A DNA stretch of 54,793 nt from an uncultured bacterium (GTDB lineage Bacteria; Patescibacteriota; Microgenomatia; UBA1400; CG1-02-47-37). The notes under the pieces were generated by a model. That model made no database searches. It had not been told where the DNA came from and was given only the letters and a program-made list of their open reading frames with translations. Where the stretch lies: NCBI GenBank assembly GCA_963980215.1, contig CAXBYZ010000004.1, forward strand, positions 1 through 54,793, given 5' to 3'. A program made the position numbers and the translations under genes. Position 1 is the first letter of the stretch, and each line of letters opens with the position of its first letter. This document shows positions 11,825 to 52,150 of the stretch, in pieces.

Positions 11825-11899
11825 GGCCTAGTGGCGAAGTGGAAACGCGGCTGTCTGCAAAACAGCTATGCGTCGGTTCGATTCCGACCTAGGCCTCCA
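11825..11899 (+). tRNA. tRNA-Cys (GCA)
   Basis: Acceptor stem GGCCTAG/CTAGGCC, anticodon arm GCTGT-CTGCAAA-ACAGC, T-loop GGTTCGATTCC, discriminator T and encoded CCA. Confidence 0.96.
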
Positions 11900-21391: not shown

Positions 21392-22547
21392 GGGGTGGTT
21401 TTGAGGAGTTTTTTAACAAATACAGGGTGATAGCAAAGAGAGATAAGCCAAAGTAGGTAGCGAAAAGCCGGGCTGAAAATTGATCAATAAATTTGCCGAT
21501 AAAAATAGCGGTTAAAGCAAAAGGAATGATGGTAAGTAGATTAAAGGTGGATAGAGTGGTGGCACGATATTTTGACTTGGTGCTTTGATTGACAATATCT
21601 GAGGTAATATTTTTGTTGATGTGATGAATGGCGGCGGTGCCAAATAAAGCTAGACCTCCAAGATATTTTGAGAGAAAAATTAAGATGGACATGAGAGAAG
21701 CATAAGCAAGATTGAGAAGATAAAAGGCTTTGATGGCGGTAAAGCGTTTTTTAATTTTGGGAGCCAGTTGAACTGCACTGGCTGAAATAATAAAGAGTAG
21801 GCTGTAGAAGAAACCCAACTCTTTTGGTTGATAGCCAAAATCAATAATTAAAGAATCTCCTAAAAATTCGTAAGGAATAACTAATATAGAAGTGATGATT
21901 AATAAGCTAATAATTCGTTTTTTAAAGGTTTGGCTGAAAAGTTGACGAAAGCCTTGCTTGGTTTGATTAATGTAGGTGGTAAAGCTAAATTTTTGGGTGT
22001 CGATATTTGGCTCGGTAATAAATAAAGTGCCTATAAGTCCTAAAAAAAAGAAAGCTCCGGTAACAATAAATGGCAAGCCGGGACGAAGAGTATATAGAAA
22101 ACCGCCAATGATGCTGCAGATAGCCCAAGCGACTAAACTGATTGTTTGGATGTTGGCTAGAATTTTTTCATATTTTTTTTCTTTATGATCTTGTTTTAAA
22201 GAATCATAAACTAAAGCCTCGTAAGAACCGGAAAAAAGAGCAGAACCCAAAGTCATAATAACAACGCTAATAATTAGGTAAGAGTAATTTAAGGCTATAC
22301 CCATGATTGTTTGGCCAATGGCTTGGAGAAGAAAAGCAAAGGTGAGGGTGTATTTTTTACCAAAAATATCGGCGATGGCTCCAGTGGGAATTTCACTAAT
22401 AATGGAAATTATAATCCAAGTGGTTTCGATCAAGCCAATACCTTGGTAGTCGGTAAATTTTAAGTAGTATAAAAGCCAAATTCCTAGCCAAAATAAAGAG
22501 TTCCAGCAAAAGGTAAGATAGTAAGCAAGTTTAATGTTTCTTTTCAT
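21378..22547 (-). CDS. MFS transporter
   Basis: About 12 TM helices, 'EIPTGAIADIFGKK', 'YRATTLS'. Confidence 0.88.
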   Translation of the reverse strand: MKRNIKLAYYLTFCWNSLFWLGIWLLYYLKFTDYQGIGLIETTWIIISIISEIPTGAIADIFGKKYTLTFAFLLQAIGQTIMGIALNYSYLIISVVIMTLGSALFSGSYEALVYDSLKQDHKEKKYEKILANIQTISLVAWAICSIIGGFLYTLRPGLPFIVTGAFFFLGLIGTLFITEPNIDTQKFSFTTYINQTKQGFRQLFSQTFKKRIISLLIITSILVIPYEFLGDSLIIDFGYQPKELGFFYSLLFIISASAVQLAPKIKKRFTAIKAFYLLNLAYASLMSILIFLSKYLGGLALFGTAAIHHINKNITSDIVNQSTKSKYRATTLSTFNLLTIIPFALTAIFIGKFIDQFSARLFATYFGLSLFAITLYLLKNSSKPPLDNI

Positions 22548-22561
22548 AAAATGATTTTATC

Positions 22562-22584
22562 ATTTAAGGTTCGGAACCTTAAAT
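22562..22584. repeat. family-I extended singlet overlapping the stop codon of ORF 22579-24222
   Basis: ATTTAAGGTTC-G-GAACCTTAAAT, identical to 23034-23056. Confidence 0.9.
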
Positions 22585-24222
22585 AATTTTGTCATTTCTA
22601 ATAAACTTTTGTAGTTCTTTTTCTGAGTAGTGGCGGACTTTATATTTGAGGATTTTAGTGGTGGAGAGCTTGGGGTTGTGGGGGTGGACGACTATAACGG
22701 AGCCGCCAATTTGCTTCATGAGCTTTCGTTTAGCGGGAAGGTTTGGGGTGTGGGCGGAGACGGCAAGAATGTCAGGTCTAATTTTTTTTAGTAATTTTAG
22801 GTGATCAGTTGGGTTATCAAATTTTTCTGGGAGAGAGAAAATTTGATCGGCAATCCCCCACTTTTTTAGGTTTTTAATTCTGGTGTTTATGGGGTTAATG
22901 GGGCGGTTTTTGCCTTTGAGTTTTTTGACCCGGACGTCTGTTTCGAGGCCGACTAAAAGGATGTTTGGTGATACACCTCCGAGGTGCACCGCAGGTGCAA
23001 CCTCACCTCGGAGGTGGTGAGATTGGGGTGAAAATTTAAGGTTCGGAACCTTAAATTTTTTGGCGGCTTTGAGAAATTTTTTGTGTTCCTCATGAAGAAC
23101 GTCGAAGCAGCCGGTGATGAGGATTTTGGTAGACATTGAAGGTTCCGAACTAGCCTCGACATTCGTCGAGGTCGTCCCGATTAAATCGGAACTGGAAGTT
23201 CGGAACCCTACACCTTTAAGGACTGTCCTTAGCTTGGCTTTGTATTCCTTTATAACTATTTTGCCGGTGGGACGAGGGTGAAAAAAGGCAGAGTGAAGGG
23301 TGACTTTTTCGTTGGTGATTTTTTTCTTCATGTAAGCATATTGAAGCTTGAAGGCGAGGAGGTTGAGATAGTTCAATACAGAAGGTTCGGAACTAGCTCC
23401 GGTGTTCACCGGAGTTGCAAGATTACTTGCTGAAGTTCCGAACCAACGAGGCTTGGTGGTTTTATCTTCTGTTAAGAACTGTTCTTGTAGGGCGTTTTTG
23501 GGTAGTGCATTGGGTAAGAATTTTTTGACCCAAGAGTTTGTAGAGATAAATTTTTCGTAAGTTTGGTCTTTATTGTAAAGGGGTTTGATTTGGCAAACTT
23601 CGTGAGCAGTGTAGAGATTGCGGCGAGATTTAGGTATAGAAATGGATGATTCTTCTAAGAAAAGGTTGAGGCAGATGGCATTCTCGGGTCCGAGTACGGA
23701 CTCGAGTCCTTTAAGGTCCGGCCTTAAAGGAGTACCTTCAAGAACGGACCTTTTTTGAGGACGACGACGGAGGTGAAAGATTTCTAGGAGAGGAATAACC
23801 AACAAGCGAGTCAACCAAAGACGGTTGGTGGTGGTGACAATCATAAGATCGATGTCGTCGTTTTTGTCTGAGTTGTTCATGGCTAAGGCTCCGGTGACGG
23901 CAATTAATTTAACTGAAGGGATAGCACTTAAAATTTTAGATATTTTTTTAGCTTTAGTTAACTTTAATTGACTAAAGTGATGGCGAGATTTGCGGATCTT
24001 GGCAAGATGGGAGCGGTTTGGGAGGTGGTAATAATTGGAGGTTTTCCCAATCAAAGGTTCCGAACTGCCTTTCGCTTTGCTGCAGGTTGCTGAAAGTTCG
24101 GAACCAACGAGTCCTGAAAGAACGGACCTTTTATCTGAAATTAGCCATTTAATTATCTCTTTCTTGGTTAGAGGATAGTCGAAAATATCGGCATAAGCGA
24201 GAGTTTTTAAGATGGCTTCCAT
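22579..24222 (-). CDS. fusion of a Pol-beta-like nucleotidyltransferase domain and a cytidylyltransferase-like domain, with many palindromic insertions
   Basis: N-part 'AVTGALA...DDIDL'; C-part 'ITGCFDVLHEEH...LVGLETD..VKKLKG.NRP'. Confidence 0.72.
   Translation of the reverse strand: MEAILKTLAYADIFDYPLTKKEIIKWLISDKRSVLSGLVGSELSATCSKAKGSSEPLIGKTSNYYHLPNRSHLAKIRKSRHHFSQLKLTKAKKISKILSAIPSVKLIAVTGALAMNNSDKNDDIDLMIVTTTNRLWLTRLLVIPLLEIFHLRRRPQKRSVLEGTPLRPDLKGLESVLGPENAICLNLFLEESSISIPKSRRNLYTAHEVCQIKPLYNKDQTYEKFISTNSWVKKFLPNALPKNALQEQFLTEDKTTKPRWFGTSASNLATPVNTGASSEPSVLNYLNLLAFKLQYAYMKKKITNEKVTLHSAFFHPRPTGKIVIKEYKAKLRTVLKGVGFRTSSSDLIGTTSTNVEASSEPSMSTKILITGCFDVLHEEHKKFLKAAKKFKVPNLKFSPQSHHLRGEVAPAVHLGGVSPNILLVGLETDVRVKKLKGKNRPINPINTRIKNLKKWGIADQIFSLPEKFDNPTDHLKLLKKIRPDILAVSAHTPNLPAKRKLMKQIGGSVIVVHPHNPKLSTTKILKYKVRHYSEKELQKFIRNDKII
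22974..23016 (+). repeat. family-III doublet (CACCT-CCG-AGGTG ... CACCT-CGG-AGGTG)
   Basis: Same architecture as family I with a different stem; inner hairpin GCACC-gca-GGTGC; encodes HLRGEVAPAVHLGG. Confidence 0.85.
23031..23059. repeat. family-I extended singlet, intragenic
   Basis: AAAATTTAAGGTTC-G-GAACCTTAAATTTT (14-bp perfect arms); encodes KFKVPNLKF. Confidence 0.92.
23139..23207 (+). repeat. family-I doublet with two inner hairpins at the domain junction
   Basis: AAGGTTCCGAAC-ta-GCCTCGAC.attc.GTCGAGGT-cgtc-CCGATT.a.AATCGG-aactgga-AGTTCGGAACC. Confidence 0.92.
23217..23231. repeat. family-IV triloop hairpin (TAAGGA-CTG-TCCTTA); a variant AAGAA-CTG-TTCTT lies at 23474-23486
   Basis: Perfect stems with a CTG loop, each next to a family-I doublet. 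Confidence 0.55.
23382..23444 (+). repeat. family-I doublet with two inner hairpins (loop order swapped)
   Basis: AAGGTTCGGAAC-ta-GCTCCGGTG.tt.CACCGGAGT-t-GCAAG.atta.CTTGC-tga-AGTTCCGAACC. Confidence 0.92.
23684..23752 (+). repeat. family-II composite element (69 bp)
   Basis: TCGGGTCCG-agta-CGGACTCGA hairpin plus the 40-mer AAGGTCCGGCCTTAAAGGAGTACCTTCAAGAACGGACCTT (23713-23752). Confidence 0.93.
24054..24130 (+). repeat. family-I subtype A doublet (24054-24105) plus an internally deleted family-II remnant (24108-24130)
   Basis: AAGGTTCCGAAC-tgcctttcgctttgctgcaggttgctgaa-AGTTCGGAACC, then CGAGTCCT-ga-AAGAACGGACCTT. Confidence 0.9.
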
Positions 24223-24223
24223 T

Positions 24224-25732
24224 TTATTTAGCTAAGCCGTATTGGGACAGAACCTGGGTAACACCTTGAGATAAATTTTGAAGAGTGGTTTTTTCTTGAT
24301 CATCTTTTAAGTATGAGTTAATGGCGTCTTCGTAGTACTTGATTAATTTATCGTTAAGACCATTGTCGAAAGTTTTTGAAGCTAGGGGCCACGATTGAGA
24401 TGAAATCGCCTGAGACAAGACAGCTCCTAGGTAGGGATCTGATTGCAAGCTTGAGGCCATATCTTGGCGGCTGTAGGGCTCACCAAACAAACGAATTTGA
24501 GAGGCAATTGAGTACATTTTGGTTAAAACTTCTTTAGTGCTTAGGTATTTTAAGAATTCCCAAGCTTCTTTTGATTGAGTAGAGTTTTTGGAAACACCTT
24601 CGATCCAGTAGGTAGCCCAAGCTACATTAGTGCCTGGTAACTGAGGAACTGGATACATCTTAAAGTTTAGTTGAGGATTGATGGTTTTTATCTCCAAAGC
24701 TCTCCAAGATGGAGCGATAAACATGGCAACTTTGCTGGTGGCAAAGGCATAAGTGGAAGCCGGTAAAGCCGTGTCCCAGCTTTTGTCTTGGGTGGCAAAT
24801 AGGGTGTAGAACTTCATGGCAGAGACAACTTCTTCTGAGTCTGGTTGAGCTGGGTCTCCTCCATTCTGGAGGATCATTAAGCCTAAAATGTCTGAGAAGT
24901 TATCTACATTACCTGTAGTCCCTAAAGCTACTCCCCCTCGAGTTAGTTTTTTGCCAGTTTGATCAAATTGACGTAGCTTGAAAGCGGTTTGGCGAAGGTT
25001 GTTCCAAGTAGTAGGCACTTTTAGATCTGGTGAGGTGGCCAAGATATCTTCGTTGACGTATAGAGAGAGGGCATCAAATTCTAGGGGGATGCCGTAGTAA
25101 CGACCGGCAGAGAAAACATCTTTTTTGACTACTGGGTAGAAAGTGGCGTCAAATTCGTTGCCTGAGTAGATGGCTTCAGGCATGGGTGAGAGGTCTGCTT
25201 TGAGCATTGGAAGCCAAGTGTTGTGGTATCTAAAAATGTCTGGGCCGTCACCTTTGGCTAGAGCAGATTGAAGACGCTCACGATAGTCTTTATGAGATTG
25301 CCTGACGTACTGGATATTGACGTTTGGATGGGCAGCTTGATAGTCGCTAATTATTTGGGAGATAGAAGATTCGGGTTCCCAAAGACCCCAGTACTTTAGA
25401 GAGATAATTTCTGGTTCTTTGTTTTTTGAAAATTGAGGAATAATAACCTTGAAGACTAATAGGGCGGCGAAAATGACAATACCCAGACCAATAAGGAGGG
25501 GTAAAAATCTTTTGAAGATTGGATCAATAACTTGAGCTGGCTCACCTGGCTCTGGAAAAGATGGTGGGGTCTCTTCTGGTGGTGGAACAGAATCTTCTTC
25601 TGTTGGAGTGTCTGGAAGAGGTGGAGAAACAGGAAATGGTGGAGATGCTGACTCTGCAGAATCATTAACTGGAGGAGTTGGAGGGGGTGTTGAAGTTTCT
25701 GCAGATGGTAGGACAGTATTTGAATCATTCAT
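24224..25732 (-). CDS. extracellular solute-binding protein (sugar ABC type) with Pro-rich cytoplasmic N-terminus and TM anchor
   Basis: 'LKYWGLWE', 'GDGPDIF', 'YYGIPL', 'AWEFLKYL'. Confidence 0.85.
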   Translation of the reverse strand: MNDSNTVLPSAETSTPPPTPPVNDSAESASPPFPVSPPLPDTPTEEDSVPPPEETPPSFPEPGEPAQVIDPIFKRFLPLLIGLGIVIFAALLVFKVIIPQFSKNKEPEIISLKYWGLWEPESSISQIISDYQAAHPNVNIQYVRQSHKDYRERLQSALAKGDGPDIFRYHNTWLPMLKADLSPMPEAIYSGNEFDATFYPVVKKDVFSAGRYYGIPLEFDALSLYVNEDILATSPDLKVPTTWNNLRQTAFKLRQFDQTGKKLTRGGVALGTTGNVDNFSDILGLMILQNGGDPAQPDSEEVVSAMKFYTLFATQDKSWDTALPASTYAFATSKVAMFIAPSWRALEIKTINPQLNFKMYPVPQLPGTNVAWATYWIEGVSKNSTQSKEAWEFLKYLSTKEVLTKMYSIASQIRLFGEPYSRQDMASSLQSDPYLGAVLSQAISSQSWPLASKTFDNGLNDKLIKYYEDAINSYLKDDQEKTTLQNLSQGVTQVLSQYGLAK

Positions 25733-31823: not shown

Positions 31824-31843
31824 AGTTGTATTATAATACCTTT

Positions 31844-34075
31844 ATGGATAAAACTTATAAAGCATCAGATCATGAGGGGAAGATTTACCAGAAATGGGAG
31901 GAGTCGGGGGCGTTTGCACCTAGTGTAAACGGGAAACCATTTACAATTATTATGCCGCCGCCGAATGCTAATGACCCGCTTCATGTGGGACATGCCATGT
32001 TTATCTCAGTTGAGGATATCTTTATTCGATATAAGAGAATGCAAGGGTTTAGCACTTTGTGGTTGCCGGGAACAGACCACGCTGGGATAGAAACACAGTT
32101 TGTTTTTGAGAAGAAATTAAAAAAACAGGATAAAAGTCGATTTGACTATGACAGGGAGACTTTGTATCAAATGATTTGGGATTATGTGCAAGAAAACTCT
32201 GAGGTGGCAATTAATCAAATGAAGAAGCTTGGAGCTAGTGCTGACTGGAAGAGGAAGAAGTTTTCCTTGGATAAAGATGTTGTTGAGAAAGTTCTTGATA
32301 CTTTTATTCAGTTACATAAAGATGGGCTTATTTACAGGGACAACAAACTGGTTAATTTCTGTACTAGGTGTGGGACTGCATTTTCTAACTTGGAAGTTGT
32401 TCATACTGAGAAGAAATCTCCACTTTACTACATGAAGTATGGGCCATTTGTGTTAGCAACAACAAGGCCAGAAACTAAGTTTGGTGATACGGCAGTAGCC
32501 GTTCACCCCAAAGATAAGAGATATGCTAAATGGATTGGTAAGGAGATAGAAGTTGAGGGGTTGCTGGGTAAATTTATGATAAAAGTAGTGGCGGATGAGT
32601 ATGTGGATCCTAAGTTTGGAACTGGAGTGGTGAAGATAACTCCGGCACATGACTTTAATGACTTTGAAGTGGGTAAGAGACATAAGTTGGAAGTTAAGCA
32701 GGTGATTGGTTTTGATGGAAGATTAAATAAACACTGTGGAGAGTATGCTGGCTTAACGGTGTTTTCGGCCAGAGAAAAAGTGGTAGAGGGTTTGGAGAAA
32801 AAAGGTTTGATGGAAAAAATTGACAAAGATTATGTTCACTCCGTGGGGAGTTGTTATCGATGTGGGCGAGCAATTGAACCTCTTCCCTTACCTCAGTTTT
32901 TTATTAAAGTGAAGAATTTAACCAAGACCGTGCTTAAAGCTTTGAAAGAAAAAAAGGTGAAAGTTTATGGTTCGGGACATGAGAAAATATTAAAACACTG
33001 GCTAGAAAACTTAAATGATTGGAATATTAGTCGACAGATAGTTTGGGGGATTCGAATTCCGGTGTGGTACTGCAAGAAGATTGAAGGTTCCGAACTAGCC
33101 CAATCAAAGATTGGGTTGGCTAAAGCCAGAAGTTCGGAACCCTGTTATGTTGTTAGTAAAGATAAGCCAAACAAATGTAGTAAGTGTGGTTCAACAACGT
33201 TTGCACGGGATGAGGATACTTTTGACACATGGTTTTCTTCTGCACAGTGGCCGGTGGTGACTTTAAAAACAGGCAAAAAATCTGATTTTGAGAAGTTTTA
33301 TCCAACAGATTTGATGGAGACTGGATATGATATTCTTCCCTTCTGGGTGATGAGAATGTTGATGATGGGATTGTACTCAACTGGAAGAGTACCTTTTAAA
33401 AGTGTTTATCTTCATGGAATGGTGAGAGATGGTAGAGGACAAAAGATGAGTAAGAGTAAGGGTAATGTTATTAATCCGGTGGAGATTGTGGATAAGTATG
33501 GGGCCGATGCTCTAAGAATGGCCTTAGTGATGAGTAGTACGGCTGGAAATGATAAGTCTGTGGGGGATGAGACAATTAGAGGAATGAGAAATTTAACTAA
33601 TAAGATTTGGAATGCGGCGAGGTTTGTGATGGAGTTTTTGCCGGAGACGGCTAATAATCAAGGTTCCGAAGAACCTTTTTCGGGTTCGAGTACGAACTCG
33701 AGTCCTCAAAGGTCTGGCCTTAAAGGAGTACCTTCAAGAACAGACCTTAGTCAACAAAGTTCGAAACCATCTAGTTTTGAAGGAGATAAAGAGTTTGAGG
33801 AAGAGATTTCCAAGATTGTAAATGAGGTGACCAAACAGCTTGAAGACTACAAGTTGGGGTTGGCGGCGGAAACGGTGTATAACCAGTTTTGGCATTGGTT
33901 TTGTGATGAGTCCATCGAGTCGGCTAAAGAAGGTAAAGTTAGCTACCCTGTTTTGATGAATGGATTAAAGACATTTTTGAAACTTCTTCATCCTTTTGTA
34001 CCATTTGTAACAGAAGCAGTTTGGCAAGAACTTGGTGAAGAACAATTATTGATTACAAGTAAATGGCCTATTTAA
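31844..34075 (+). CDS. valS: valine--tRNA ligase (no C-terminal coiled coil; two element-derived insertions)
   Basis: 'PPPN', 'HVGH', 'GTDHAGI', 'WNISRQ', 'DTWFSS', 'KMSKS'; likely start MDKTY at 31844. Confidence 0.96.
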   Translation: MDKTYKASDHEGKIYQKWEESGAFAPSVNGKPFTIIMPPPNANDPLHVGHAMFISVEDIFIRYKRMQGFSTLWLPGTDHAGIETQFVFEKKLKKQDKSRFDYDRETLYQMIWDYVQENSEVAINQMKKLGASADWKRKKFSLDKDVVEKVLDTFIQLHKDGLIYRDNKLVNFCTRCGTAFSNLEVVHTEKKSPLYYMKYGPFVLATTRPETKFGDTAVAVHPKDKRYAKWIGKEIEVEGLLGKFMIKVVADEYVDPKFGTGVVKITPAHDFNDFEVGKRHKLEVKQVIGFDGRLNKHCGEYAGLTVFSAREKVVEGLEKKGLMEKIDKDYVHSVGSCYRCGRAIEPLPLPQFFIKVKNLTKTVLKALKEKKVKVYGSGHEKILKHWLENLNDWNISRQIVWGIRIPVWYCKKIEGSELAQSKIGLAKARSSEPCYVVSKDKPNKCSKCGSTTFARDEDTFDTWFSSAQWPVVTLKTGKKSDFEKFYPTDLMETGYDILPFWVMRMLMMGLYSTGRVPFKSVYLHGMVRDGRGQKMSKSKGNVINPVEIVDKYGADALRMALVMSSTAGNDKSVGDETIRGMRNLTNKIWNAARFVMEFLPETANNQGSEEPFSGSSTNSSPQRSGLKGVPSRTDLSQQSSKPSSFEGDKEFEEEISKIVNEVTKQLEDYKLGLAAETVYNQFWHWFCDESIESAKEGKVSYPVLMNGLKTFLKLLHPFVPFVTEAVWQELGEEQLLITSKWPI
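33084..33141 (+). repeat. family-I doublet with two inner hairpins inside valS
   Basis: AAGGTTCCGAAC-ta-GCCCAATC.aaa.GATTGGGT-TGGCT.aa.AGCCA-ga-AGTTCGGAACC. Confidence 0.93.
33660..33768 (+). repeat. nested element in valS: degenerate family-I arms enclosing a family-II composite (33680-33748)
   Basis: AAGGTTCCGAA...TCGGGTTCG-agta-CGAACTCGA...AAGGTCTGGCCTTAAAGGAGTACCTTCAAGAACAGACCTT...AAGTTCGAAACC. Confidence 0.92.
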
Positions 34076-42942: not shown

Positions 42943-44067
42943 ATGAAAGTTTCGTTATTGCAAGAGAATTTAGCCAAAGGGGTGATGATGGTTGGTAGGA
43001 TGGTAGCAAGTAAGGCGCAGTTGCCGGTTTTATCTAATATTTTGCTGGTAACAGAGTCTGGAAAGTTAAGAGTGTCAGCAACAAATTTAGAAACAGGAAT
43101 GAATGTGTGGATTTCCTCAAAGATAGATGAGCCTGGAAAGATTACGGTGCCTGCTAAGATATTTATGGAGCTGGTGAGCTCTTTACCTAAAGAGACAGTT
43201 ATTCTTGAGACTGAGGGAGAGAAGATTAAGGTGACTTGCGGCAAGTTTAAAGCAACGGTTAATGGGATATTGGCTGAAGAGTTTCCTGAGGTACCAAGTC
43301 TAAAAAGTGGGAGTAAAAAAGGAGTTGAGTCTTTAAAGATAAAAACAAGCGTTTTTGAGAGCTTTATCGATCAAGTGGCTATGGCAGCTGGAGTGGATGA
43401 AGCAAGGCCAATTTTTACTGGAGTGAAGTGGGAGATAGGTAAAAACATTAAGCTAGCAGCTACAGATGGTTACCGTTTGAGCGTAAAGAAGATTAAGGGG
43501 GTGTCATGGTCTGGAGAGAAAAAAGAGATGATAGTGCCGGCTAAGGCATTAATGGAGATAACCAAGATCGTTTCTAAGGTAGATGATGATGAAGTGTTAG
43601 TAGCGGTGACGGATAAAGATAAGCAGTTAATACTGGCTCTTAAAGATGTTGAGGTGGTAACTAGGTTGATTGAGGGAGAGTTCCCTGATTTTGAGAAGAT
43701 AATTCCAACAACAGCAAGTAGTACGGTTGAACTTGATAGAGAGGAGTTGACTCAGGCGGTGAGGGCGGTGGCCATCTTTGCTAGAGATAGTGCCAACATT
43801 GTTAAGTTTAAGGTGACGGATAAATATTTATTGATTTCGGCAAATGCCCCACAAGTGGGAGAGAACGAGGTCGGAGTGAGTGTTGAAAGAAAGGGAGAAG
43901 AGACAGAGATAGCTTTTAATAGTAGATATTTATTAGAAATTTTATCTTTGGTGAAGGCTGAGAGATTAACTTTATCGATGTCTGGGCCGTTAAATCCTGG
44001 TGTTTTTAGGGAAGTTCCTGACCAAGACTTTTTACATATTATTATGCCGGTGAGGGTGCAGGGGTAG
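42943..44067 (+). CDS. dnaN: DNA polymerase III beta clamp
   Basis: 'PVLSNILL', 'ATNLE', 'ATDGYRL', 'LIEGEFP', 'IIMPVR'; AAGGAG RBS. Confidence 0.97.
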   Translation: MKVSLLQENLAKGVMMVGRMVASKAQLPVLSNILLVTESGKLRVSATNLETGMNVWISSKIDEPGKITVPAKIFMELVSSLPKETVILETEGEKIKVTCGKFKATVNGILAEEFPEVPSLKSGSKKGVESLKIKTSVFESFIDQVAMAAGVDEARPIFTGVKWEIGKNIKLAATDGYRLSVKKIKGVSWSGEKKEMIVPAKALMEITKIVSKVDDDEVLVAVTDKDKQLILALKDVEVVTRLIEGEFPDFEKIIPTTASSTVELDREELTQAVRAVAIFARDSANIVKFKVTDKYLLISANAPQVGENEVGVSVERKGEETEIAFNSRYLLEILSLVKAERLTLSMSGPLNPGVFREVPDQDFLHIIMPVRVQG

Positions 44068-46030
44068 AGTCGTTAGGTTCCGAACTGCCTTTCGCTGGCG
44101 CTGCAGGCCGCTGAAAGTTCGGAACCGTGGCCGGTGAGGGTGCAGGGGTAGATGTTGGGTTGGTTGCGGGGGCGGGCTGTTTGTTGGCCAGTACTTCTTT
44201 GGGGTCACTGGTGATAAGAGCGTGTTCGTCTGGTGAGGCAACCACCTTTACAGCTACGTGGTTTTGACCAGCGAAGATAATACCGTGGCCAATGCCGGCC
44301 CCTAAAAGTAAGTGTTTTTCTCCTTCGGAAAGGTAAAAGATTTTAGCTAGCTTGTCGATAGCGGCGGTACTTTGTTTCATTAAAATTTGAATTGAAGAGT
44401 TGGTGACGATGGCTTTGCCGTAGTCTGAGGAGAGAAAGTCTTCGACATCTTGAGTGATGGTGGTTAAACCCAGATAGTATTTCCTGGCCCTTTTGGCCAT
44501 GGAGTAGAGGAAGCTAGCTGAGTCTGGGTATTTCATCATGTACCAAGCCTCGTCGACGACTAGTAGCCTTTTTTTTAGGTCTTTTTTAACTTTTGTCCAG
44601 ATGTGATCTAGAATCATGAACATGGCAATAGGGCGAAGGGCATCTTCTAGTTCCTGAATAGAGAAAACAGTAAAAGTGTTTTGAATGTCAACATTGGTGT
44701 GTTGGTCAAAGATGCCCCGAAAGGAGCCTTTGACAAATTTTTCTAGGCGAGCGGCCAAGTTAAGGGCAGCGGTTTCTTCCATGCCGATTAAAACTTTATA
44801 CAGGTCTTCAAGGAGAGGGGGTTCTTTTTTTTGAGTGGCAGGGTCGGGGGTGATGCCTTTTTGTTTGTAGGTTAAGATAATACTTCTATCTAGAAGAGCT
44901 TCTTCTTGAGGGGAGAGGTCACCCATGATGATTTTAAAGAGGGAGTGAAGAGAGAGAATTTTTTGGGAAAGTTCGTTTTGACCTTCTTCATAAACTTGAG
45001 ATAGGTCAAAGGGGTTTATTTTTGAAGTAGATTTAAAAGAAAATTGAATGTATTGACCGCCCACGGATTCACAGAGTTTTTGATACTCGTTTTCAGGATC
45101 GATAATGATGACTTCAGTGTCAAACATTAATGACCTTAGGGCTTCAAGTTTAACAAGGTATGATTTACCAGCACCAGATTTAGCAAAGACGACGGAGTTA
45201 GCGTTTTCAAGAGAAAATCGGTCGAGAATAATGAGAGAACTGTTGTGCTGATTGATGCCGTACAAAACACCCGTATCTTGAGTTAACTCTGAAGAGGTAA
45301 AGGGAAAAGTGGTGGCTAGAGAGGTGGTGTCCATGTTTCTGGTGATCATTAGTCGATCTTGAGCTAAAGGGAGAGTGGTTTTGAAGGCGTCATTCATTTG
45401 AAGGCTGGCTGGTTTGGCAATGATCATGAGCGAGCCTAGGGCTGATTGAACTTGTTTGGTAATTTTATTTAATTCTTCTAAGGAGTCGGCAGGGATAGTA
45501 ATGTAGAGGCCAAATTGAAAGAATCTCTCAGAGCCTTTAGCTAACTCAATTTGAAGAGACCTGGCATCTTCTAGTTGAACTTTGGTGGAGACGTCGGCAA
45601 TTTTACCCCTTTCAATGTCTGACTGGATCTCGGCCTCCATTTCCCCGACTTTTCTTCTTAGATCACTCATGATGCCACGGCCATCGATGGGGTAGATATA
45701 CATGGAAATATTAAGAGAGTGTCTAAAGTTGATTAAGGGGGAGAGCCAGTTGGCGTTGACAAAGCGAGGGTAGCCAGAGACAAAAAGGGTGCGAAAGTAG
45801 GTGTTGTCAATTTTTTGGTGAGAAAAGTCAATTTCGATGGCTGAGGGGGCAATTATATCCTGGACAGAGGTGACTCCTCGGGAGAACTGATCTTGTTCAA
45901 AGCTGGTTTCTTGTTTGGTTTGTTTCGGGGTGGCCTGAGAAGCCGGGTTTGGGGTTGGCGAGTCACCTGGTTTTTGATCAGCTTTTGGGGTCGATGGAGG
46001 TTTTTTGGGTAGAGAAAGATTAAGTTTCAT
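44042..46030 (-). CDS. VirB4/TraC-like ATPase
   Basis: Walker A 'AKSGAGKS', 'IIDPENEY', 'VVDEAW', 'RARKY', 'ITQ'; likely start MKLNL at 46030. Confidence 0.88.
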   Translation of the reverse strand: MKLNLSLPKKPPSTPKADQKPGDSPTPNPASQATPKQTKQETSFEQDQFSRGVTSVQDIIAPSAIEIDFSHQKIDNTYFRTLFVSGYPRFVNANWLSPLINFRHSLNISMYIYPIDGRGIMSDLRRKVGEMEAEIQSDIERGKIADVSTKVQLEDARSLQIELAKGSERFFQFGLYITIPADSLEELNKITKQVQSALGSLMIIAKPASLQMNDAFKTTLPLAQDRLMITRNMDTTSLATTFPFTSSELTQDTGVLYGINQHNSSLIILDRFSLENANSVVFAKSGAGKSYLVKLEALRSLMFDTEVIIIDPENEYQKLCESVGGQYIQFSFKSTSKINPFDLSQVYEEGQNELSQKILSLHSLFKIIMGDLSPQEEALLDRSIILTYKQKGITPDPATQKKEPPLLEDLYKVLIGMEETAALNLAARLEKFVKGSFRGIFDQHTNVDIQNTFTVFSIQELEDALRPIAMFMILDHIWTKVKKDLKKRLLVVDEAWYMMKYPDSASFLYSMAKRARKYYLGLTTITQDVEDFLSSDYGKAIVTNSSIQILMKQSTAAIDKLAKIFYLSEGEKHLLLGAGIGHGIIFAGQNHVAVKVVASPDEHALITSDPKEVLANKQPAPATNPTSTPAPSPATVPNFQRPAAPAKGSSEPNDSTPAPSPA
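44046..44152 (+). repeat. family-I subtype A doublet (44075-44126) flanked by a perfect 23-bp direct repeat
   Basis: GCCGGTGAGGGTGCAGGGGTAGA at 44046-44068 and 44130-44152. Confidence 0.93.
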
Positions 46031-46721
46031 TTTGAGTAGGAGTATCTTTTGATATGGAAGCATTGACAATGGCAACTTCTGATTCTGAGCGATTGGTGAA
46101 ATCGACATTGCCAGAATTGGGATTGTAGTAGTTGAAAAAGAGTTTAATTAGTTGTGGGGTGGTGAGTTGCTTGGTTTTTAAACCAAGCCGAGAGAGTTGG
46201 GTGATGAGGTGATCTTTTTTTGGAATTAGGCTAGTTTTGGCTTTTTCAATCAGGACACTTTTGTCTAGGGTAAAGTTTTTTTGTTTTTTAAAAGCGGTAG
46301 ATAAAGTAGAAGAGACGCCCATTTCTAAACTAGAAAAAGGAAGAGATAGGTAAAACTTTTTGTCTAAGACCTCATTTTCTTTGACGGTTTGTTGGATAAA
46401 TTGATAGTATTTTTCCAGTTGAGTTTTAAGGAGGGGGTTGGTGATTCTTTGTTTTTGAGCATTTAAAAGACCAAGGTAAGAGTTGATGTTTTTCTTTTGA
46501 GAAGTAATTAAAATTTGAACTGGAAAGTTTAGAGAGTTTAGAAGACCAGCGTAGGCGTAGATGGTGGCGTCTTGTTCTCCCTCTGAAAGTAAAGAAAAGT
46601 TAACTGCTGATGTTTGAAGAATGATACAGGCAGAGCCATCTTTTAAGACAATCATGTCCTCTCGAATGTCTTCGATGTCCATGTGACTTTGAGTGCTGGT
46701 TTTGATTTGAGTGGCAGGCAT
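46020..46721 (-). CDS. conserved protein upstream of VirB4 (TraC/TraE N-terminal-like)
   Basis: 'STQSHMDIEDIRE', 'AVNFSLLSEGEQDA', 'LNFPVQI'; operon context. Confidence 0.65.
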   Translation of the reverse strand: MPATQIKTSTQSHMDIEDIREDMIVLKDGSACIILQTSAVNFSLLSEGEQDATIYAYAGLLNSLNFPVQILITSQKKNINSYLGLLNAQKQRITNPLLKTQLEKYYQFIQQTVKENEVLDKKFYLSLPFSSLEMGVSSTLSTAFKKQKNFTLDKSVLIEKAKTSLIPKKDHLITQLSRLGLKTKQLTTPQLIKLFFNYYNPNSGNVDFTNRSESEVAIVNASISKDTPTQNET

Positions 46722-51435: not shown

Positions 51436-52062
51436 CTATTCTAAGGATAGCTTTGTAAGTTTTTGGGCTATATTTTCTTTGGTGGGGGAGGAAAGAAAAC
51501 TTGAATAATTCTTGGTTAGTTTTAAGACATATTCCGGATACAGCCAGTCTGTGGGATCGGTTTTTTTAAGATATTCTGGTAGAGAAGAATATGAGGTTTT
51601 GTGGAGATGAATGTATTTTGAGAGTTGCAATAACTGTTCACTGGAATCAACAACTACATTTTTGTAGCGACCCTGGAAGATAGCGCCGGAATGTTTGTGA
51701 TGGCTTTGAAAGTACATGGCATAGGTAATCATTAATCTTCGCATAAGATTAGAAATGTTGGTTTTATTGTCTGCAGTGGGCATGGGTTTTAAAATGAAGT
51801 GAAAGTGGTTGGGCATGAGACAGTAGGCAACAATTCTAACGGAGTCAACATGAAGGTTACGAACCTTACTGTAGGGTTTTTGGACGGTGTCTTTGTAGGA
51901 GAAATATTTGGCAGTAGGGAATTTTAGGTAGTAGATGAGAATTTCAATGAAAGTGTCGTAATCTTTTTTGTCTTTAAAGATTTTATGTTTGTAAGCACCA
52001 CGATTAAAGATGTGATAAAAATGTTGAGGTCTGAAATTTCTATTGTAATACTCACTGGGCAT
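51436..52062 (-). mobile_element. HUH/Y1 tyrosine transposase, REP-associated (RAYT, IS200-like Y1_Tnp)
   Basis: 'FYHIFNRG', 'AYCLMPNHFH' (HUH), 'GAIFQGRYK', 'YIH', 'YSS'; palindromes on both sides; no tnpB. Confidence 0.9.
51848..51874 (+). repeat. palindrome copy inside the RAYT coding sequence
   Basis: ACATGAAGGTTACGAACCTTACTGTAG, identical to 52078-52104; encodes YSKVRNLHV. Confidence 0.93.
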
Positions 52063-52077
52063 TAATTTAAGTATAGC

Positions 52078-52150
52078 ACATGAAGGTTACGAACCTTACT
52101 GTAGCGCGAGGGCTTGGGGTGTTACATGAAGGTTACGAACCTTCATGTAG
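52078..52150 (+). repeat. two tandem RAYT-flanking palindromes (5' of the gene)
   Basis: 52078-52104 and 52124-52150; the second supplies the TAA of ORF 52133-52474. Confidence 0.95.

Follow-up and report, generated by a model that had tools for sequence, protein, structure and literature searches.

Palindromic repeats as in-frame, probably translated inserts in a Patescibacteria enzyme gene, with candidate transposases in the same genome

How can a single gene take up repeat after repeat and still read as one protein? The question is posed by a 54,793-nucleotide stretch of DNA from an uncultured bacterium (Patescibacteriota; Microgenomatia; UBA1400; CG1-02-47-37; assembly GCA_963980215.1, contig CAXBYZ010000004.1, positions 1-54,793), here called the window. 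It belongs to a genome (G000) of 820,410 bases in 45 contigs, and the sequencing runs that contain it are marine or seawater metagenomes. The region 22562-24222 of the window holds a 547-amino-acid open reading frame (ORF) on the minus strand, which an initial annotation described as an insertion hotspot for ten elements of four families, one of them seated where it might have fused two genes. We find that the ORF is indeed open across all ten positions, each of which is a palindrome or an inverted repeat. With a probability of roughly 0.7, we interpret these as repeats resembling repetitive extragenic palindromes (REPs) and their REP-associated tyrosine transposases (RAYTs), read through as translated inserts.

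Repeat-coded inserts in a conserved enzyme

The host gene is defined by two features:

22579-24222, minus strand: ORF of 547 codons without a stop, comprising a Pol-beta-like nucleotidyltransferase domain with a helical part (aa 1-337), a linker, a cytidylyltransferase-like domain (aa 363-526) and an extension of ~18 aa
23134-23136, minus strand: ATG codon of Met363, with which the cytidylyltransferase-like domain begins (MSTKILITGCFD)

The C-terminal domain matches Pfam CTP_transf_like (PF01467) with 27.3 bits, above the cut-off of 21, and also an rfaE_dom_II-like model. Foldseek aligns it with the catalytic domains of HldC (5xf2) and CCT (4zcs) at E ~2e-5, probability 1.00 and target TM-scores of 0.65-0.81. 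The N-terminal domain stays below the Pfam cut-offs (PF18765, Polbeta, 19.5 versus 26.9 bits; PF01909, NTP_transf_2, 16.4 versus 21). Sixteen columns are invariant across 40 aligned sequences, including the nucleotidyltransferase positions G111, D123 and D125, which we take to fit the G-S...D-x-D motif of Pol-beta-type nucleotidyltransferases; the cytidylyltransferase motifs are presumably intact as well. Orthologues occur in 39 of the 41 genomes searched (G000 counted), and the fused homologues, from Patescibacteria, Microgenomates and Beckwithbacteria, are named “adenylyltransferase/cytidyltransferase family protein” in databases. Judged from its sequence, the ORF is best explained as a conserved Patescibacteria enzyme in which a Pol-beta-like nucleotidyltransferase domain is fused to a cytidylyltransferase-like domain.

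The ten units fall in five internal sites, every one of them compound, and at the stop codon:

24108-24134, no strand: site 1a, aa 30-39 (DKRSVLSGLV), unit whose core is AGAACGGACCT
24054-24107, plus strand: site 1b, 51-nt element with GGTTCSGAAC inverted ends, aa 39-57 (VGSELSATCSKAKGSSEPL)
23684-23752, minus strand: site 2, 69-nt composite hairpin element (23 codons), aa 157-180 (KRSVLEGTPLRPDLKGLESVLGPE)
23474-23486, no strand: site 3a, palindrome AAGAACTGTTCTT, aa 246-250, one copy genome-wide
23382-23446, plus strand: site 3b, three-way-junction element, aa 259-281, fold z -7.6
23215-23231, no strand: site 4a, palindrome AAGGACTGTCCTT, aa 331-336 (LRTVLK), where the last helix of the N-terminal domain ends
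23139-23209, plus strand: site 4b, three-way-junction element that makes up the linker between the domains, aa 338-362, immediately before Met363, fold z -6.2
23031-23059, no strand: site 5a, perfect 29-nt palindrome, aa 388-398 (KKFKVPNLKFS)
22973-23017, plus strand: site 5b, 45-nt doublet of CACCTCSGAGGTG (15 codons), aa 402-417, fold z -8.2
22562-22584, no strand: stop-codon site, 23-nt palindrome ATTTAAGGTTCGGAACCTTAAAT, within which TAA at 22579-22581 (minus strand) is the stop of the ORF

Together the internal sites code for aa 30-57, 157-180, 246-281, 331-362 and 388-417. When each site was compared with the genome by BLAST, nine of the ten units proved to be dispersed repeats, the exception being the single-copy palindrome at 23474, and the units are of at least six sequence types rather than four families. 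Shuffled sequence would be expected to contain the motif GGTTCSGAAC 0.06 times; the window contains it 23 times. All units form strong hairpin folds on the coding strand (z -2.2 to -8.2), two of them as three-way junctions. In Rfam, 22400-24400 has no match of note, only a miRNA model at E 0.91.

Most units can be followed elsewhere in the genome. The core of site 1a has 11 occurrences, and it adjoins the site 1b unit as it does in the copy at C22:904-984, to which 24054-24134 is 86% identical. The 51-nt unit, whose edges (24055/24105) come from loose ends, is 90% identical to 44075-44126, and its segment is lacking in 10 of 10 aligned fused relatives. The 69-nt unit of site 2 (fold z -5.0) has four near-full copies (91-98.5% identity) and four partial ones. 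The palindrome of site 3a is possibly a decayed AAGGACWGTCCTT unit, and the congener G001 carries a repeat-family element at the same codons (“QGQPLTGD”). The core of site 4a, AGGACWGTCCT, occurs 14 times, and site 5b has two further copies at 87-89% identity, with edges at 22973 and 23017. The 23-nt palindromes at 22562 and 23031 have ~10 exact copies in the genome, and the one at 22562 closes the ~18-aa extension, which is absent from relatives.

The units at sites 3b and 4b have the same ends and architecture as 27 distinct copies from four genomes. The same outer stem (GGTTCSGAACT/AGTTCSGAACC at site 3b, a unit lacking in the other 10 aligned relatives) encloses two hairpins in 26 of the 27, and the inner stem sequences vary. 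Measured between the GGTTC...GAACC ends, element lengths leave remainders of 1, 2 and 0 on division by three in 18, 7 and 2 of the 27 copies. When a conserved AA on the left is included, the majority class becomes a multiple of three, which is only a hint of codon-compatible length, as the copies are related and their edges uncertain. No target-site duplication is visible in 28 flank pairs; what is conserved is just an A or AA on the left side.

Three other classes of repeat were considered and rejected. DNA uptake sequences would not show up as inserted residues, relics of tRNA T-arms are matched only in GGTTCG..AACC, and there is no spacer-repeat array as in CRISPR.

To place the inserts among relatives, we compared the protein with ten fused relatives of the same order and, separately, in a 40-sequence alignment that includes the 30 fused homologues (384-505 aa) found among the best 120 database hits. 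At 547 aa, the window’s protein is the longest fused form. It contains five private segments that all ten fused relatives of the order lack, and the 28-aa segment aa 390-417 (sites 5a and 5b), which lies within the catalytic domain, is lacking in all 30 fused homologues. Set against these 30, the repeats fall at five sites that are variable loops or linkers. The 40-sequence alignment also served to build an AlphaFold2 model, with a mean predicted local distance difference test score (pLDDT) of 80.3. Values below 50 are confined to aa 165-167, 170-177, 249-278, 348-361 and 398-416, all inside element-coded stretches, and the adjoining domain cores are mostly above 90; at site 1, 10-residue blocks average 62 and 64 over aa 31-50.

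The same positions have been used in other lineages. The congeners G001 and G002 carry different repeat-derived sequences at sites 1-3, and many homologues have element-like peptides at the insert sites of the ORF; these positions therefore appear to be permissive ones that have been hit repeatedly. The insertions in the window’s protein are real, lineage-specific and all in frame. That they keep the frame, amid intact conserved blocks, is best explained by selection purging disruptive insertions, and on this point the initial annotation holds.

Site 3 also marks a break in other orthologues. Four relatives from three genera (L021 in G005, L019 in G010, L022 in G013 and L023 in G006) are split there, at aligned aa 238-281, into two overlapping ORFs. 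The first ends in ...PNWK(M/I/G), or in ...ANWSF in G010, followed by a stop, and the second begins in another frame at a conserved ATG ~30 nt upstream, an arrangement that fits either a conserved split or a programmed frameshift. The database entry of P0001, a G002-like orthologue, begins at a Met (MVPNFSKY...) that itself lies in repeat-coded sequence; in these genomes, an ATG contributed by an element can lead to a wrong start-codon call.

In-frame elements of the same types are also present in genes for a class-I aminoacyl-tRNA synthetase, a TatD DNase, a TraG-like ATPase and a Fic-MerR protein. Three such copies are in the window:

33086-33141, plus strand: three-way-junction element in frame in the class-I aminoacyl-tRNA synthetase gene (31826-34072, plus strand)
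33680-33748, minus strand: 69-nt element again, in frame in that synthetase gene (31826-34072, plus strand)
44075-44126, plus strand: 51-nt element with GGTTCSGAAC ends in frame in the TraG-like ATPase gene (44045-46147, minus strand)

The copies at 33680-33748 and 23684-23752 have the same absolute orientation and are read on opposite strands. Contigs that bear the inserts are identical in four non-source marine runs from 2012-2020 and bridge the elements with 0 differences (among them X6 record 10, equal to 22749-23649, and X5 record 2, equal to 22606-23167). Because the frame is kept at six sites here, and with different elements in the congeners, we infer that the inserts are translated. 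Elsewhere in the window, the only Rfam match above gathering score is a tRNA gene at 11825-11896 (plus strand).

Candidate transposases, repeat density and strand bias

The genome contains 16 matches above the Pfam cut-off to Y1_Tnp (PF01797, HUH), in ORFs of ~208-230 aa. Fifteen lie on C1, C2, C5, C7, C8, C14, C15, C19, C23, C27, C28, C30 and C31, and one is in the window:

51436-52086, minus strand: RAYT-like Y1 (HUH) transposase gene with its own palindrome (core GGTTCGTAACC) on both sides and in frame inside

The 16 genes are divergent paralogues, 34-60% identical to the window’s copy, and seven aligned paralogues all keep the HUH (H-x-H) motif and the Tyr of “YIH”. The only NCBIfam match of the two proteins tested among the 16 is REP-associated tyrosine transposase (NF047646, REP_Tyr_transpos), at 37.6 bits for the protein of 51436-52086 and 41.5 bits for the other. 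Searches for two other families, the TnpB-type PF07282 and DDE_3 (PF13358), found no match in the genome.

What connects these genes with the inserts is their flanks. On the two sides of 14 of the 16 genes we find 12-25 exact nucleotides of a gene-specific palindrome in common, compared with only 12 of 300 random loci that share at least 10 nt; of the remaining two genes, one is cut by a contig end and one has an upstream copy that was scored as internal. The palindrome flanking the C14 gene (5503-6159) is identical to the ORF elements at 22562 and 23031, the latter through the 23-nt core of site 5a. The core of site 4a also flanks transposase genes, at C2:28213 and C19:1270, and a GGTTCSGAACC core is common to the flanks of three Y1 genes. 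Read by eye, GTAG/CTAC is visible at four of the 16 flanking palindromes (C19, C1:69633, C7:22952 and C30) and at none of the GGTTCSGAACC types.

The transposase genes themselves carry the repeats. In eleven of the 16, the gene's flanking palindrome recurs inside it as an exact in-frame copy of 18-25 nt, placed at either of two conserved protein positions (~aa 50-64 or ~aa 150-158), and this internal palindrome co-varies with the flanks across the paralogues (for example 51436-52086, C14:5503-6159, C19:1270-1935 and C31:3515-4207).

The density of repeats in the ORF is exceptional. The transposase flanks yield cores with 201 sites in the genome, nine of which fall in the 1.66-kb ORF stretch; the next best window of that size has six. 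By palindrome-core count the stretch is the densest 1.66 kb of the genome, as the description of a hotspot implied. A wider core list gives 14 of 227 against seven for the next window, a count that is biased since the list is partly derived from the ORF. The ORF also ranks first for 12-mers that occur at least four times, a noisy measure that flags 14% of the genome. Perfect hairpins with short loops number 137 in the genome, three of them in the ORF, versus 10 in a shuffled genome, by a scan that overlooks elements with long spacers. The genome’s second-densest cluster (6-7 cores) lies in a 698-aa ORF at C8:6242-8335 (minus strand).

Across the genome, GTTCSGAAC occurs 98 times in 70 groups, and 48 of these groups fall within stop-to-stop ORFs no shorter than 100 aa. 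In 20 pairs (16 without the ORF), cores of different families are no more than 60 nt apart, versus 2.9 expected and a maximum of nine in 500 randomisations. Such clustering fits either insertion beside existing hairpins or a shortage of permissive sites.

Both the repeats and the Y1 genes are unevenly spread among relatives. Counting both strands, so that a palindromic site counts twice, AGGTTCSGAACC has 52, 43 and 19 matches in the genus's three genomes; outside the genus it is frequent in only a few relatives, and 31 of the 41 genomes searched lack it. The family to which the genus belongs also has the highest numbers of Y1 genes (16, 11, 18, 9, 7, 9 and so on; range 1-18 in family relatives), and six genomes of the order have no Y1 gene at E 1e-5 or better. 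One genome from another family of the order, G035, has 20 matches to AGGTTCSGAACC on both strands (~10 palindromic sites), and most closer relatives have none; this patchy occurrence possibly reflects horizontal spread.

The asymmetric elements are oriented with respect to local GC skew. Three-way-junction elements have one orientation in 6 of 6 cases in G000 and 22 of 22 in G001-G003, and the 51-nt type is on the G-rich strand in 8 of 8. The AAGGTCCGTTCTT core has the same orientation relative to skew in 10 of 10 copies, seven of which are the 69-nt set (7 of 7). Host genes of the elements are on either strand, the same element is read in both senses, and the transposase genes have no strand bias (10 versus 6). 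The skew itself is strong, constant in sign along contigs and independent of gene strand (+0.25 in the window; -0.46 to +0.44 for contigs above 10 kb); strand disparity of this sort is announced in the title of a study of a Microgenomates genome (PMC7143001). The G-rich strand is probably the leading strand. The absolute orientation of the elements fits replication-linked, single-strand insertion, and parts of a published account describe IS200/IS605-type single-strand transposition as strand-specific and tied to replication (PMC6006769).

These observations are consistent with a model in which the ORF has repeatedly been invaded by non-autonomous repeats of the REP/REPIN kind, which are small (13-81 nt) and form hairpins. 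The mobilising enzymes would likely be the genome’s 16 RAYT-like Y1 (HUH) tyrosine transposases, most of them bracketed by their own palindrome, and insertion would probably be into single-stranded DNA during replication, beside existing hairpins. Selection would then leave those insertions that keep the frame, are stop-free in it and lie in loops at the protein surface, in the linker between the domains or at the C-terminal end, and the survivors would be translated as ~100 extra, probably disordered residues.

Several results weigh against this model. The Y1 proteins score 37-41 bits against a RAYT equivalog cut-off of 80, and a profile of seven Y1 sequences matches only ISDra2 TnpA (2xm3) in the PDB, weakly (E 0.007); a single Y1 protein retrieves nothing from PDB sequences at E up to 1. 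The classical REP tag GTAG/CTAC is visible only in the four of 16 flanking palindromes noted above, and none of the transposase flanks in the assembly is an exact match for the 45-nt doublet, the 69-nt unit or the AGAACGGACCT unit. The cores are not enriched in genes, with 60-75% in crude gene calls versus ~94% crude coding sequence, and the hotspot could mirror tolerance rather than targeting. Contigs of the four non-source runs, which drop rare variants, contain no empty-site allele and no element-skipping joint, and metagenome contigs contain no near-identical allele (best 56% identity); recent mobility in this lineage is accordingly putative.

Some of the same results would be expected if the repeats were translated but had spread without the Y1 enzymes, through recombination or gene conversion, hairpin slippage or an unrecognised transposase. 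Element types that lack a cognate Y1 flank and Y1 scores under the RAYT cut-off fit this account, the inner hairpins of the three-way-junction class look as if exchanged as modules, and hairpin-directed recombination could also produce the cross-family clustering. We nevertheless regard it as unlikely, given that most Y1 genes are bracketed by their own palindrome, one of them identical to two ORF elements. In addition, the absolute strand bias matches the single-strand transposition described in parts of PMC6006769, and neither of the two other families searched, PF07282 and DDE_3, has a match.

Host benefit, domain fusion and other readings

The inserts might instead be kept for a benefit to the host, as flexible linkers, surface loops or mRNA hairpins that tune stability or translation. 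Many orthologues do have element-like peptides at the same loop sites, the allele is identical across samples spanning 8 years, and the Y1 genes keep their in-frame palindromes at conserved positions. Against this, the sequences at one site are wholly different between congeners, insert-free orthologues are common, the structure model predicts no structure for the inserts, and the same elements lie in unrelated genes in both orientations. We therefore hold a host benefit to be quite improbable; under the REP/RAYT-like reading, the inserts that survive would be nearly neutral.

The location of site 4 suggested a different history to the initial annotation, in which the block 23139-23231 joined two once-separate adjacent genes and left Met363 as a relic start. 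The block does lie between the N-terminal domain and Met363 (ATG 23136-23134), with an in-frame Met exactly at the start of the second domain. The domains are encoded separately in many genomes of the order, by adjacent genes in G040, G029 and G024 and by genes apart from each other in G039, G016 and G022, so the anticipated arrangement exists, but many other relatives are fused (ten loci among relatives of the order). In the congener G001 the domains are separate ORFs, the second starting at a Met aligned to Met363 (MTTVLVTGCFD). The G001 junction (L013 2040-2200) contains a AAGGACAGTCCTT unit and a larger inverted-repeat element with stops in the frame of the gene, different from the element in the window.

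Fused forms that lack a junction element are common, and they speak against joining by insertion. Six of the 30 fused homologues (P0019, P0022, P0024, P0025, P0027 and P0029) have alignment gaps throughout the junction insert, and the domains are likewise joined without it in the relatives L009, L014, L018, L020 and L015. Relatives free of the elements are thus already fused, though with a shorter linker. Within the genus, G000, the G002-like P0001 and G003 are fused, and G001 is slightly nearer the G002-like fused form (68.4% in the N domain, 73.7% in the C domain) than G000 is to G001 or the G002-like form (66.4-66.8% and 69.3%). By parsimony the fusion is therefore probably ancestral in the genus, with one split in G001, and the sole change seen at the junction would be a break rather than a join; a secondary re-fusion in G000 is a remote possibility. 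Overall, the best explanation is that the domains were fused before the elements arrived and without their involvement, and we consider joining by insertion very unlikely.

Much the same low probability attaches to the idea that intron-like excision from the mRNA, or translational bypass, takes the elements out before they reach the protein and leaves a mature enzyme without inserts. Every element is a strong hairpin on the coding strand, which would suit this idea. Elements that are removed would need neither frame nor absence of stops, yet the frame is kept at all six sites of the ORF, at sites 1-3 of the congeners and in other long ORFs. Moreover, no Rfam family matches, and the stop-bearing junction element of G001 coincides with two separate ORFs. 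Finally, a decaying pseudogene or assembly artefact that is open by chance is scarcely credible: the ORF has the highest repeat load in the genome and contigs of other runs break at repeats, but 547 stop-free codons, the 16 invariant columns, core pLDDT above 90 and the non-source contigs that bridge elements without a difference all contradict it.

Implications and relation to known systems

If the REP/RAYT-like reading is right, hairpin repeats of the REP kind can live mainly within genes where spacers are almost lacking, and in-frame inserts can be tied to candidate transposases of the same genome, which for the Rickettsia elements has not been possible so far. The repeats would also be a concrete source of unexplained extra loops, variable linkers, mis-called starts and split genes in Patescibacteria proteins, which matters for how the proteins of this large uncultured group are annotated, modelled by homology and used in phylogenomics. 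The absolute strand bias would serve as a simple genomic read-out of replication direction. For organisms beyond present cultivation, it also predicts something testable about single-strand transposition.

A broader and more doubtful proposal is that a REP/RAYT-type system has shifted its niche from intergenic DNA to protein loops in the ultra-small, nearly spacer-free genomes of Patescibacteria, with 16 Y1 paralogues each seeding its own coding-compatible hairpin in one replication orientation, including a new three-way-junction class. Were this so, loops and linkers of housekeeping enzymes would be remodelled continually, with occasional gene splitting or end extension, and the in-frame hairpins in the transposase genes would be master copies or autoregulatory sites.

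Among known mobile elements, those of the IS200/IS605 family (IS608, ISDra2) resemble the present system in their Y1 HUH transposase, hairpin ends and strand-specific behaviour, and ISDra2 TnpA is the weak profile match. Here, in contrast, there are 16 divergent paralogues, no PF07282 match and no strand bias of the transposase genes, and it is the short hairpin that has multiplied, not the gene. Like MITEs (miniature transposable elements bearing inverted repeats), the repeats are non-autonomous, have 11-nt terminal inverted repeats and are sometimes intragenic. Unlike MITEs, they are much shorter (13-81 nt), have no target-site duplication in 28 flanks and share the genome with no DDE_3 gene, the sole DDE family searched.

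The REP/RAYT systems of Proteobacteria come closer. Parts of PMC6006769 describe a transposase gene bracketed by its own palindrome family, and several such transposase/palindrome families per genome; here too we find dispersed short palindromes, Y1 genes bracketed by their own palindrome and coexisting families. Some elements pair two inverted units around a spacer, the arrangement that abstracts describe for REPINs. The differences are that the repeats are mostly intragenic and in frame, whereas REPs are extragenic, and that there are 16 paralogues in 0.82 Mb, whereas published abstracts describe RAYTs as typically single-copy. The proteins (~210-230 aa) fall below the NCBIfam RAYT cut-off, and most palindromes appear to lack the GTAG/CGTC tag, a tetranucleotide at the hairpin foot that sections of PMC3733652 give as a feature of classical REPs. 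Furthermore, 11 of the 16 transposase genes carry their own palindrome in frame, and one class of element is a three-way junction.

The closest counterparts are the Rickettsia palindromic elements (RPEs) and the intragenic GTAG/CGTC REPs of several phyla. According to parts of PMC3733652 (Di Nocera et al. 2013), these are in frame, add 20-30 or more residues and often come as dimers or groups; the argument is that they occupy loops or linkers, and in some cases they provide a stop codon. The repeats described here are likewise in-frame palindromes in genes, at loop or linker sites, with one supplying the stop, in a gene whose function is likely retained, judging from its conservation. They differ from RPEs in their host phylum, Patescibacteria, and their sequences appear unrelated, a distinction drawn without comparing any RPE sequence. 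Among the titles and opening lines of abstracts searched, with subscription journals outside the search, none ties REP, RAYT or IS200-type palindromes to Patescibacteria or the Candidate Phyla Radiation. On sequence grounds, the system may thus be regarded as a variant of intragenic REPs and RPEs, new for Patescibacteria as far as the literature found, and set apart from RPEs by a much denser packing, with ten units in 1.6 kb of one gene, and by candidate transposases in the same genome.

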